64,000 nt of DNA from a virus. A program made the translations under genes and the position numbers. Where the stretch lies: positions 1-64,000 of IMG/VR virus record IMGVR_UViG_3300046694_000299; one strand, given 5' to 3'. The notes under the pieces were generated by a model. That model worked only from the letters and a program-made list of their open reading frames with translations. It was not told the origin of the DNA and searched no databases. Positions 8,658-10,972 of the stretch are shown piece after piece (positions within the stretch are counted from its first letter, which is position 1; every line of letters begins with the position of its first letter).

Positions 8658-8990
8658 ATGACAGAAGCGCTCACCTCCGCCATCGCGTCCGAGACGGGTC
8701 GGCTCGCAGAGATCACCGACCTCGTCGAGCGCTTCCACGCGGTCCGCGAATTCCGGCAGGCCCTGGCGGAGGGCGACCGCAGCGGCAAAGCACTGGAGCG
8801 GGCCGTCGTCAGCGAGCTCAAGAAGGACCGGCCCTGGCGCGAGGTCGGAGAACTGCTGGGCGTCTCCGGCTCTCGCGCCGAACAGATCGCCAAAGGGCGG
8901 GGGCCAATTCGTCATGACGTCGAGTCAACGCCTCACGCGGGCGCGGCAGAAGGACACTCCCCCGACACCGAAACGCCAGAACCGCAGTAG
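8658..8990 (+). CDS. HTH regulator (sigma-region-4-like C-terminal helix-turn-helix)
   Basis: MTEALTSAIASETG...PWREVGELLGVSGSRAEQIAKG. Start chosen at the internal ATG. Confidence 0.5.
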   Translation: MTEALTSAIASETGRLAEITDLVERFHAVREFRQALAEGDRSGKALERAVVSELKKDRPWREVGELLGVSGSRAEQIAKGRGPIRHDVESTPHAGAAEGHSPDTETPEPQ

Positions 8991-9062
8991 GTAGACACCG
9001 CGGCGACATGACCCCGTCACCGCAACGCCAGACCCGAGCGCAGCGAGCACGGGAGCCCCATT

Positions 9063-9701
9063 GTGGACGTCGTCGGTACATGGACCGGCCGGACAGCGTG
9101 CCTCCTCCAAGAGGCGCTACGAATGACGAACGACGGATTCGCCGAGCACCTCGGCATTTCCGCGCGCACCATTACCCGCTGGCATTCCAGCCCGGAAATG
9201 GTGCACCGGACCGAGGTACAGCAGATCCTCGACTTGGCCTTCGAGAGGGCAGGTGATGCGGTGCGTCGGCGGTTCATTCACCTCACGCGCCCACCGGAAA
9301 GCCAGGCGACGGCGCAGGCGCTGCGCGTGGCCATCGCCGTGGTGCGGCGCGAGGACAAGGTGCTCCTCGTCTGCAGGCAGGACGGCAGCGACATGACCTG
9401 GCAGTTCCCGGCCGGCATCGTCAAGCCGGGCGGTTCGGCCACGAAGGTCGCCGTCCGGGAGACGCTGGACGAGACGGGCGTGCACTGCATGATCCGCGAG
9501 CACCTGGGTGAACGACTGCATCCTTTGACGCGCGCCTGGTGCGATTACTTTCTCTGCGATTTCGTACACGGCGAGGCGGTCAACGGGGATTCCTCCGAGA
9601 ACGTCGCCGTGGCGTGGGCTCCGATAACGGAGCTCGCCCGCTACATCCCTGAAGACCGCATCTACCCGCCGATCCTTGAGGCACTGGAGGCCACCGTATG
9701 A
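9063..9701 (+). CDS. XRE-type HTH fused to a Nudix-fold domain with a partly degenerate Nudix box
   Basis: N-terminus LLQEALRMTNDGFAEHLGISARTITRWHS. Nudix box GIVKPGGSATKVAVRETLDETGV has Gly where the G-x5-E glutamate is expected, and DE instead of EE. Confidence 0.7.
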   Translation: MDVVGTWTGRTACLLQEALRMTNDGFAEHLGISARTITRWHSSPEMVHRTEVQQILDLAFERAGDAVRRRFIHLTRPPESQATAQALRVAIAVVRREDKVLLVCRQDGSDMTWQFPAGIVKPGGSATKVAVRETLDETGVHCMIREHLGERLHPLTRAWCDYFLCDFVHGEAVNGDSSENVAVAWAPITELARYIPEDRIYPPILEALEATV

Positions 9702-10108
9702 CCGAGACCATCACCGAGAAGCCCGGCATCTCCGCCGCGATCATCGTCCAGGACGGACGCGTGCTGATGGTCCGGCGCCGGATCTCCGAGGGCGAGCTGA
9801 TGTGGCAGTTTCCCGCGGGCGGCATCGAGCCGGGCGAGGTCGCCGAGGACGCCGCGGTGCGCGAGACCGCGGAGGAGACGGGCCTGACGGTGAAGGCGAT
9901 CCGGCTGCTCGGCGAGCGCGTCCACCCGAAGACTGGCCGGCTGATGTCGTACACCGCGTGCGAGCCGATCTCGGGCGAGGCGCACGTCGCGGACGACGAC
10001 GAACTCGACGCGATCACGTGGGCGGCGCACTCGGAGCTCCCCGGCCTGGTGCCCTACGGCCTGTTCGAGCCGGTACAGGAGTACCTCGACGCCGTCCTGC
10101 CGCACTGA
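9698..10108 (+). CDS. Nudix hydrolase (canonical Nudix box)
   Basis: GGIEPGEVAEDAAVRETAEETGL matches G-x5-E-x7-REUxEExGU. ATGA overlap with the upstream gene. Confidence 0.8.
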   Translation: MTETITEKPGISAAIIVQDGRVLMVRRRISEGELMWQFPAGGIEPGEVAEDAAVRETAEETGLTVKAIRLLGERVHPKTGRLMSYTACEPISGEAHVADDDELDAITWAAHSELPGLVPYGLFEPVQEYLDAVLPH

Positions 10109-10309
10109 GGTCGCCGCCATCCCCCGAAAGAGGGATCGGATCGACGAAGGGACCGGGTCGGATTTCCCCGCCCGTGCCTTAGGTTCATCAGTGGGCGCAG
10201 GTAGCGCCCCCGAACAGCGAACGGCCCGGCGCGTCAGCACCGGGCCGGATCGAACCGGCGAGCTGCGAACTCGCCGATCAACAAGCTCGCCTCGTCAAAA
10301 GGAGCTCCC

Positions 10310-10606
10310 ATGCAGGGTACTGCCTTAGCACCCGCGGCACGACGGACAATCACCCCCGCCCGCCTGTTGGATGCGCCACTCGATGACCTGCTCCTCGAGC
10401 TGGACGTCGAGCTCCACCTGTCGCAGATCACCGACCCGGGCTTCATCGGCGCCCTGGTGCAGCTGCCGGACGGGAGCCTGATCCTGTCGATGCCGCCGGG
10501 CCGGCCGCGCCTGGAAAGGGACACGGTGGCGCGGGCGATGCTCGGGCAGGTGATCGGGGTTCCGCTCGGACCGCTGCCGGAGATGTACGAGCTGACCGAG
10601 GTCTGA
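10310..10606 (+). CDS. Hypothetical protein
   Basis: 98-aa ORF with AAAGGAG upstream. Confidence 0.5.
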   Translation: MQGTALAPAARRTITPARLLDAPLDDLLLELDVELHLSQITDPGFIGALVQLPDGSLILSMPPGRPRLERDTVARAMLGQVIGVPLGPLPEMYELTEV

Positions 10607-10705
10607 CGTCCCACGAGCCCCGCCTGTCAAGCACGGGTGGGGCTTTGGCGTGTGCGCCCTTGTGGCCGCACCGTGCACAGATGACCGTGGTCTGTCAGCG
10701 GGGCG

Positions 10706-10972
10706 GTGTACCGACGACAGGGGGACGACGTGCGACGCAAGTTCGACGACGTGGCTGGCCGGCTGCTGCTGCGCTTTGCGGTGGTGCTGCACCACACGGT
10801 CGCGAGCCGGGTTGCGAACGACCGGTTGCAAGCCCGGCGGAACAGGGCGTTGCGGGCGGCGTATCGGCGGGGCGTGCCGGTGGAGGTGCTGGCGGCGCAG
10901 ATGCGGTTGACGCCGAGCTGGATCAGGCAGGTGCTCAACGGGCGGAAGCCGGCGGTGGAGGAGGCCGCGTAG
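10706..10972 (+). CDS. Small HTH-like protein
   Basis: C-terminal VEVLAAQMRLTPSWIRQVLNGRK. Confidence 0.45.
   Translation: MYRRQGDDVRRKFDDVAGRLLLRFAVVLHHTVASRVANDRLQARRNRALRAAYRRGVPVEVLAAQMRLTPSWIRQVLNGRKPAVEEAA

Follow-up and report, generated by a model that had tools for sequence, protein, structure and literature searches.

We analysed a 64,000-nucleotide (nt) stretch of viral DNA (positions 1 to 64,000 of the IMG/VR record IMGVR_UViG_3300046694_000299, one strand), which is called the window below and has a G+C content of ~70%. The subject of this study is an island of plus-strand genes at 8658-10972, which includes a gene that encodes a fusion protein with helix-turn-helix (HTH) and Nudix domains (gene B, 9063-9701) and, directly behind it, a gene for a second Nudix protein (gene C, 9698-10108). 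Third-position GC (GC3) backs coding for these two frames as well as for 8658-8990 (gene A), 10310-10606 (gene D), and 10706-10972 (gene E), all on the plus strand. The genes from 30362 down to 422 lie nearly all on the minus strand, and the five genes of the island break this run, as had been described in an initial annotation made from the sequence alone. Protein family matches to tape measure, tail, endolysin, integrase, RecE-/Sak4-like, DnaB-like helicase, and FtsK-like genes assigned the window to a temperate siphovirus-type element.

The HTH–Nudix fusion and its paralogue

Gene B starts with GTG and encodes a protein of 212 residues, in which an Xre-type HTH (approximately residues 9-75) is followed by a linker and a degenerate Nudix domain (residues 88-210). 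The Nudix domain matched Pfam NUDIX (PF00293) with E=1.4e-15 and 58 bits against a cut-off of 21.1. The HTH of the window protein gave only an Xre-like-HTH match (E=0.009), which is below the Pfam cut-off, and among 30 relatives HTH_3 was matched by 16 and Xre-like-HTH by 13, again all below the cut-off. The core of the HTH is nearly invariant across 120 homologues of B, and the conserved motif of the family is FAxxLG(V/I)SxR(S/T)(V/I)xxW. The AlphaFold model of B (mean predicted local distance difference test score, pLDDT, 88) consists of a five-helix N-terminal domain, whose helices were modelled at pLDDT ~90, a disordered linker at residues 77-87, and a minimal Nudix fold, and Foldseek placed the C-terminal half of the protein among Nudix structures. 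The Pfam match, the sub-threshold HTH matches in relatives, the invariant HTH core, and the model together support the order of an XRE-type HTH and then a Nudix domain that had been read from 9063-9701. No NrtR chain was present among the 17 matches (E<=1e-3) of a PDB profile search or among the top 50 Foldseek matches to the PDB.

The Nudix box of B, GIVKPGGSATKVAVRETLDETGV, reads exactly as first stated, with the Glu of Gx5E replaced by Gly and EE changed to DE. It departs from the full GX5EX7REUXEEXGU box by Gly at position 7 and Asp at position 19. In 72 non-redundant loci of the B family, position 7 is never Glu (Ala in 38, Gly in 21, Val in 5) and neither is position 19 (Ala in 49, Asp in 13, Gly in 9). 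Arg15 is replaced in ~30% of the loci, and E16 and E20 are invariant. The Asp at position 19 of the window protein is the mildest variant of the family.

Gene C encodes a canonical minimal Nudix hydrolase of 136 residues on the plus strand. Its start and the stop of B share the four bases ATGA at 9698-9701, and its box, GGIEPGEVAEDAAVRETAEETGL, is canonical, so that both the ATGA overlap and the perfect box of the initial annotation were confirmed. C matched Pfam NUDIX (PF00293) with E=7.3e-23 and 81.5 bits against the same cut-off of 21.1, and the key box residues G1, E7, R15, E16, E19, and E20 are invariant in 76 of 76 non-redundant loci. The Nudix domain of B and C are paralogues with 37% identity (E=2e-24). 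C is more conserved than B, with 80-100% identity in the best 120 clusters. The losses in the box of B extend over the whole family and stand beside an intact C; B is therefore a copy that degenerated long ago and has been retained beside an intact one. In nearly every locus with downstream room (84 genome loci and 75 viral contigs), a C homologue is encoded behind B, in the same orientation and 63 nt or less away; the two loci that exceed this gap have 148 and 200 nt.

No equivalog cut-off of NCBIfam was approached by the pair (the best score was 48 bits against cut-offs of 80-475), and hence no substrate assignment is possible. The nearest structures in the PDB profile search and Foldseek were Ap4A hydrolase, the catalytic domain of NudC, RppH, MutT, MutT2, and CTP pyrophosphohydrolase. 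These are pyrophosphohydrolases of small NTPs, Ap4A, and RNA, and we found no pointer to the ADP-ribose, NAD-derived, or cyclic-nucleotide ligands that had been considered initially. A role in defence, which had also been considered, did not gain support; the sole match in the defence library was the PADLOC candidate PDC-S07, a 135-position profile that matched C (E=7e-16) and B (E=5e-10) by generic Nudix similarity.

The fusion protein has more than 1000 database relatives, which are ~70% identical in many Streptomyces chromosomes and are annotated only as 'NUDIX domain-containing protein'. We compared ~160 loci (numbered with the prefix L where needed), of which 84 came from reference genomes and 75 were IMG/VR viral contigs, mostly of 55-90 kb. 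The genome loci, found with an alignment-based scan after single-sequence patterns had found none, belong to Streptomyces, Kitasatospora, Promicromonospora, Actinoplanes, Dactylosporangium, Asanoa, Amycolatopsis, and others. Carriers are thus spread across Actinomycetota and include both prophages of 55-90 kb and elements that resemble the integrative and conjugative elements of actinomycetes (AICEs). The core of small regulator, fusion, and partner (A-B-C) occupies a fixed syntenic position in the ~160 loci. The Micromonosporaceae-type loci have an integrase, a DnaB_N/DUF3987 replication protein, and a translocase as neighbours, which is an AICE-like layout. In other collections, BFVD held no viral structure matching both domains of B, and megablast of window positions 6000-14000 against INPHARED gave no match. 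The sole tblastn match of the fusion in INPHARED was a Microcystis phage at 31%, and no isolated phage in that collection carries the fusion. PLSDB contained no plasmid with a full-length fusion; its best Nudix-only matches were solitary genes in unrelated contexts, and this plasmid lead was dropped.

Predicted DNA sites in the control regions

A direct-repeat array at 8953-9036 on the plus strand, which is the proposed binding site of the HTH–Nudix protein, consists of GACAC at 8953, 8964, and 8994, GACAT at 9005, and GTCAC at 9016, with spacings of 11, 30, 11, and 11 nt. Most other loci have three to six (A/G)TGCA(G/C) repeats instead of GACAC. The 160 nt upstream of B form the densest or joint-densest repeat cluster in each 20-kb locus, and the spacings across loci are overwhelmingly 10-11 nt or multiples thereof. 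The GACAC-type array is unique in the window, other occurrences being at chance level, and B therefore looks like a local rather than a global regulator.

The type of repeat covaries with the recognition helix of the HTH. GACAC was found in 25 of the 26 loci whose helix belongs to the xRW class (…RT(I/V)(S/T)RW) and in only 3 of the 102 loci of the AxW class (…R(S/T)(V/I)A(x)W), a difference with Fisher p=3e-22, uncorrected for phylogeny. TGCA repeats occur together with both A-type and GntR-type upstream genes, which indicates that the repeats track B and not the upstream regulator. Comparison with loci L089 and L015 revealed that the window protein itself is a natural chimera, of which the HTH and the Nudix domain come from different lineages. 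Its HTH is 67-78% identical to those of other xRW members, and 97% to that of L087, a near-identical copy. The Nudix domain of the window protein shares 96% identity with that of L089, in which the HTH is only 46% identical and the leader carries five TGCA repeats. The junction of the chimera lies in the disordered linker, and the repeats of the window follow the HTH, not the Nudix domain. The covariation and the chimera together point to autoregulation by B, and the simplest reading is that B would bind the repeats and autoregulate the B-C pair. The box asymmetry and the covariation of repeats and helix also lend support, at the level of sequence, to the original proposal of a putative DNA-binding regulator with a degenerate, sensor-like Nudix domain that is paired with an active-looking Nudix enzyme.

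The region upstream of the island had been described as a divergent control region of its own, and it proved to be real and conserved in the alignment. On its right side lies gene A (8658-8990, plus strand), which encodes a small DNA-binding regulator in the slot of the Kor repressors of conjugative elements. Gene A shows a coding signal that fades after ~8860 and a weak match to phrog_686, 'HTH DNA binding protein'. Homologues of A precede the fusion gene by 365-418 nt in 15 loci; in other genera, this slot belongs to a GntR-type gene in 23 loci. On the left side lies gene F (8167-8421, minus strand), the first gene of the leftward operon, which encodes 84 residues with an HTH-like appearance by eye and has a GC3 coding signal. 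Profile searches with gene F gave no family match, and its start and its ribosome-binding site AAGGAG are conserved in the alignment.

Two palindromes were predicted as operators in this region, O1 (CAAGGGGGTCCTTG, 8556-8569) and O2 (TCAAGGGGCGTCTTGA, 8611-8626). Many Streptomyces-type loci have such CAAG-N5-7-CTTG pairs at the same offset, where ~0.03 per locus would be expected. Apart from O1/O2, the 64-kb window has no such pair, and further sites in it are at chance level. O2 overlaps the -35 element of a candidate promoter of gene A on the plus strand (8623-8651), which consists of TTGAAG at 8623-8628, a 17-nt spacer, and TACGCT at 8646-8651. Both hexamers are conserved in the alignment. 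A strict consensus scan for promoters and terminators did not list this promoter and returned nothing useful in the high-GC DNA. Since the -10 element ends only 6 nt before the ATG at 8658, the gene A mRNA is probably leaderless. The Micromonosporaceae-type loci, in which the upstream gene is of GntR type, have another conserved palindrome, ACGTCTAGACGT, in the promoter region; a GT-N-AC type palindrome at -64 accompanies the GntR-type gene in the 23 loci of other genera. CAAG-N6-CTTG thus goes with A-type genes and ACGTCTAGACGT with GntR-type genes, so that the operators track the small upstream regulator.

The leftward transcript would begin with a structured 5' leader (8446-8552, minus strand), in which two predicted stem-loops each display ACUCCUAC, an anti-Shine-Dalgarno-like sequence. 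The leader is conserved in 23 loci with compensatory changes at eight predicted pairs, and its U-G pairs fit the minus strand only. Rfam gave no family for the leader or for the hairpins of the island described below, only two sub-threshold chance matches. The leader may serve to control the translation or the stability of the FtsK/TraB-type operon's transcript.

Translocase operon, cargo slot, and carrier element

The distal gene of the leftward operon (1220-3280, minus strand) encodes an FtsK/SpoIIIE (TraB-like) translocase, which matched phrog_12531 with E=4.6e-111. Of the 127 loci with sufficiently long flanks, 93 have a gene for an FtsK/TraB-type translocase to the left of the cassette on the opposite strand, and it was never seen elsewhere; its median distance from the fusion gene is 4.8 kb. 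A Pfam FtsK_SpoIIIE match was obtained in loci L035 and L070. The translocase and a 426-residue protein with a weak VIT1/membrane match (together 1220-4571 of the window, minus strand) are syntenic with the cassette in many prophages, as are several small genes. Judged by the gene content of 1220-4571, this tailed phage contains a transfer module in the style of plasmids or AICEs. Some relatives show further genes here: an HTH_SpdB_C spread-protein domain occurs in a protein encoded at the translocase region of L004, and a third Nudix gene (140 residues) was seen in the leftward operon of L001 (6344-6766), L004 (7946-8368), and L005 (543-965), always on the minus strand, with no counterpart noticed in the window.

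Behind the Nudix pair, a cluster of stable hairpins at 10193-10291 on the plus strand (-60 kcal/mol over 10180-10300, z=-4.0) has no U-tract and is likely a transcript end or attenuator. Gene D (10310-10606, plus strand) encodes 98 residues with a strong GC3 signal and no family match in profile searches. It is semi-conserved cargo, of which homologues were found in 18-19 related loci, 1.0-1.4 kb downstream of the fusion start. It is followed by a terminator-like hairpin at 10615-10645 (plus strand) with a 13-bp stem and UUUGG. Gene E (10706-10972, plus strand), a small HTH protein gene with an HTH_31 match below the cut-off (E=7.6e-5), is variable cargo present in only three related loci. The island is closed by a strong bidirectional hairpin at 10973-11031, for which folding gave -46.7 kcal/mol (z=-5.8) with the plus strand and -42.5 kcal/mol (z=-5.2) with the minus strand. 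This is the 'strong terminator' of the initial annotation: the hairpin, which lies between convergent genes, is real, whereas it lacks a U-tract and was missed by the consensus terminator scan.

The hairpins split the island into A-B-C, D, and E. The slot behind the core holds DUF6083, an antirepressor (ANT), GntR, or a truncated peptide-deformylase gene in other loci. Because the A-B-C core is fixed and syntenic in the ~160 loci and only the downstream part, 10310-10972, is variable, the cassette is not the moron that had been proposed. Proteins matching Pfam Acb5 (PF26761) were seen a few kb from the cassette in L001 (13948-14907) and L004 (19743-20183).

Evidence on transcription came from relatives. 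At the Streptomyces olivaceus homologue (L014, a prophage of strain NRRL B-3009), contigs from four RNA-labelled runs, which represent two organisms and a soil metatranscriptome, land at 9490-10246. This stretch reaches from the small gene ahead of the fusion over the spacer into the first part of the fusion gene. Another contig falls on the partner gene, one 96%-identical contig lies at 12865-13115, and nothing else was found in the 20 kb. These data give weak support to cotranscription of A and B and to expression in uninduced cultures. The expectation that the island is expressed in lysogens accordingly received only thin support, from RNA-labelled contigs on relatives of the window phage.

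As to the carrier, the window contains genes for the tape measure (55128-59708), an endolysin (40143-41324), and a tyrosine integrase (31970-33262). A candidate conventional lysogeny switch lies beside the integrase, where an HTH_3 protein gene (30906-31337, plus strand) faces a gene for an HTH_17/excisionase-type protein (30135-30362, minus strand). With this integrase-proximal module present, the island is a second regulatory node. Also near the integrase is a gene for an 82-residue, GntR-only winged-HTH protein (35070-35318, plus strand; Pfam GntR E=8.8e-12). Its homologues lie directly upstream of the HTH–Nudix gene, in the Kor-type slot, in elements of Actinoplanes, Dactylosporangium, Asanoa, and Promicromonospora. 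A further Xre gene at 34268-34498 and a DUF6221 gene at 35738-36154 were observed in the same area. In the tail region, the protein encoded at 53467-55128 (minus strand) has a C-terminal match to phrog_24476, which is annotated as a phosphodiesterase (E=2.6e-16), and its gene contains three GACAC motifs at 53860-53914, a cluster at chance level. The integrase is central, with structural and lysis genes at 37-64 kb on one side and early genes at 0.4-30 kb on the other, and no tRNA gene is present in the window. In this arrangement, the contig resembles a virion-order phage genome rather than a prophage cut at attP. The exact window sequence was found in rhizosphere and soil DNA metagenomes only, and related copies of the element are integrated in chromosomes.

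A proposed Kor/Pif-like cassette and its alternatives

Nudix proteins have been described on mobile elements of actinomycetes. In pSAM2, KorSA (GntR) and Pif, a Nudix protein of which the motif is required, keep the element integrated and confer conjugal immunity, and the targets of Kor proteins are inverted repeats located between kor and tra genes (PMC2440964). Nudix genes are present on most AICEs, and their mechanism was described as unknown, and an mdp-nud-xre cluster is common to several of them (PMC2440964, PMC3218068). A gene combining HTH and Nudix on the Streptomyces integrative and conjugative element (ICE) ICE01 was speculated to encode a cI-like repressor, with data not shown (PMC9513070); it has the same domain combination as B and is likened to it here by description only. 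In the mdp-nud-xre cluster (pMEA100, pSE211, AICESco5349, and Frankia elements), a Nudix hydrolase and an XRE-family HTH regulator are likewise conserved together, although they are separate genes there and are accompanied by an HD-domain phosphohydrolase, whereas the cassette has no HD protein.

By gene organisation and published descriptions, the closest known system is KorSA/Pif of pSAM2. Both combine a small repressor, which is of GntR type in many of the loci related to the window, with an intact-motif Nudix protein, and both are carried by actinomycete integrative elements with an FtsK/TraB-type translocase. In both, the repressor gene faces transfer-type genes over palindromic operators, as in korA-traA (PMC2440964). 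However, the cassette has two Nudix genes, one of which is fused to an Xre HTH and has a degenerate box, an arrangement that has not been reported for Pif. In the window, the cassette resides on a tailed temperate phage and not on an AICE of 10-20 kb, and the upstream regulator of the window is a small non-GntR HTH protein, the GntR-only gene being situated at 35070-35318. None of the database annotations of B and C homologues is named Pif. The proposed role of the cassette in quiescence or immunity is borrowed from Pif.

Taken together, the island is most likely the regulatory arm of a conserved divergent module in temperate actinophages of 55-90 kb and in AICE-like elements. For its more specific function as a regulatory-immunity cassette of the Kor/Pif kind, in which A controls the divergent promoters, B autoregulates and senses, and C hydrolyses a nucleotide, we consider the chances to be about even. 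In such a cassette, the small repressor (A, or a GntR/Kor-type protein elsewhere) would bind the paired palindromic operators in the shared control region. It would thereby regulate the rightward, leaderless promoter of its own gene and probably the leftward operon, too, in which the FtsK/TraB-type translocase gene comes last. B would bind the helically phased repeats upstream of its own gene and so autoregulate the translationally coupled B-C pair. The Nudix domain of B would most likely sense a ligand or serve as a non-catalytic subunit instead of being an efficient enzyme, whereas C would be a hydrolase that destroys a nucleoside-diphosphate-linked molecule. If B senses the same molecule, the pair would form a self-setting sink for a nucleotide signal, and this signal, if the KorSA/Pif system of pSAM2 is taken as a model, would control the element's activation, transfer, or re-entry.

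Several points weigh against this interpretation. That B binds DNA at the repeats and acts as a sensor, that C is catalytic, what the signal is, and that the cassette confers immunity or quiescence are all inferred. The window protein B keeps the Arg, the next Glu, and the last Glu of the box, and could therefore still be a slow or specialised enzyme. Gene A of the window is not of GntR type and has no significant family match. The covariation of helix and repeat, being uncorrected for phylogeny, may reflect few evolutionary events, and the chimera acquired the repeats and the HTH in a single block with gene A, so that linkage could account for their association there. The Micromonosporaceae class has neither type of repeat, only a loose CTGCGC/GCGCAG element on which we do not rely. 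A translocase was not detectable with the queries used in 34 of the 127 loci, and the RNA contigs have a depth of 2-8, carry RNA labels of which several are guesses, and come from relatives of the window phage.

Other explanations were considered on the same evidence. The initial annotation had compared B with NrtR, and the island could be an NrtR-like switch on ADP-ribose or an NAD-derived messenger, serving defence or anti-defence, with B as the sensor and C as the degrading enzyme; we regard this as improbable. Its attraction is that NrtR-type one-component sensors regulate conflict systems (PMC9503650) and that B, in which a degenerate Nudix domain is joined to an HTH, recalls them; in NrtR, a one-component regulator, a catalytically compromised Nudix domain serves as the ligand sensor and is combined with a DNA-binding domain. 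NrtR moreover often regulates an operon with nucleotide-metabolising enzymes. The match of both B and C to PDC-S07, the related prophages with Acb5-family genes and variable cargo including an antirepressor beside the cassette, and the thin evidence for expression in uninduced cultures go in the same direction. The likeness holds in logic only, however. NrtR has an N-terminal Nudix domain and then a C-terminal winged helix; the reversed order of B, which had already been pointed out, stands. The HTH is a five-helix domain of Xre type and not winged, and the PDB profile and Foldseek matches given above showed no similarity to NrtR by sequence or fold. Instead of NrtR-box palindromes, direct repeats phased by 10-11 nt lie before gene B itself, and the neighbourhood of the cassette has no genes of NAD metabolism. 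The Nudix domain is minimal, without the extra domain typical of ADP-ribose pyrophosphatases. The PDC-S07 match is at the level expected of any minimal Nudix domain, no defence neighbours were seen around the cassette, and the constant partner over the ~160 loci is the translocase operon and not a defence effector. That B is the main CI-like repressor, in which the Nudix domain replaces the C-terminal sensor/cleavage domain as the sensor of induction while C tunes the inducer, seems quite unlikely to us. The order of an HTH and a C-terminal sensor domain does resemble CI, and the island is the only part of the 20-kb prophage stretch present in transcript contigs. The conventional integrase-proximal module is nevertheless in place, the proposed B sites occur only before B and not at other promoters, and the divergent promoters would be controlled by a separate small regulator with its own operators.

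Sanitation of the nucleotide pool, in which C and perhaps B would safeguard the element's replication as (d)NTP pyrophosphohydrolases of the MutT/NudG type and the HTH would serve no more than local regulation, is quite doubtful as well. MutT, MutT2, CTP pyrophosphohydrolase, and Ap4A hydrolase are indeed among the nearest solved structures, all database annotations read '8-oxo-dGTP diphosphatase/NUDIX hydrolase', and Nudix genes are common in phages. Such an enzyme is hard to reconcile with the distance from every equivalog cut-off noted above and with the constant pairing of C with a degenerate, HTH-fused paralogue. The cassette is also transcribed in the direction opposite to the replication genes, occurs in non-phage AICE-like elements, and is linked to transfer-type rather than replication genes. 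The tight coupling of the two genes and the weak 'Antitoxin Xre-like HTH' matches in 13 of 30 members would suit an addiction pair, in which an Xre-type antitoxin domain neutralises a Nudix toxin. This is very improbable, since to our knowledge no Nudix toxin family exists, the HTH is fused to the degenerate copy instead of being a separate labile antitoxin, and a three-gene structure with a further regulator fits badly.

The Kor/Pif-like regulatory module thus remains our preferred reading. Nudix control on actinomycete mobile elements is known in general, whereas the fusion, the paired paralogue, the predicted sites, and the sharing between phages and AICEs have not been described before. 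Nudix genes have been noted on most actinomycete ICEs for ~20 years, and the signal and mechanism of Pif are still unexplained (PMC2440964, PMC3218068). The present analysis defines a sharply conserved three-part device with predicted DNA sites for two of its proteins, two specificity classes, and a natural chimera. The device occurs both in tailed prophages and in AICE-like elements, where it is linked to an operon for a TraB-type translocase, and one may ask why a transfer/immunity module in the style of plasmids is maintained by tailed Streptomyces phages. A vague annotation shared by more than 1000 database proteins is thereby turned into testable hypotheses with a route to the ligand. In a bolder version, which we consider rather unlikely, the two paralogues would form a device in which a pseudo-enzyme on the DNA reads a nucleotide messenger and an enzyme erases it, so as to decide on activation of the FtsK/TraB-type transfer operon. 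Tailed phages would then also move like plasmids between hyphal compartments or cells, with Nudix immunity against re-entry. If this is true, the identity of the ligand would explain Pif-type Nudix immunity.

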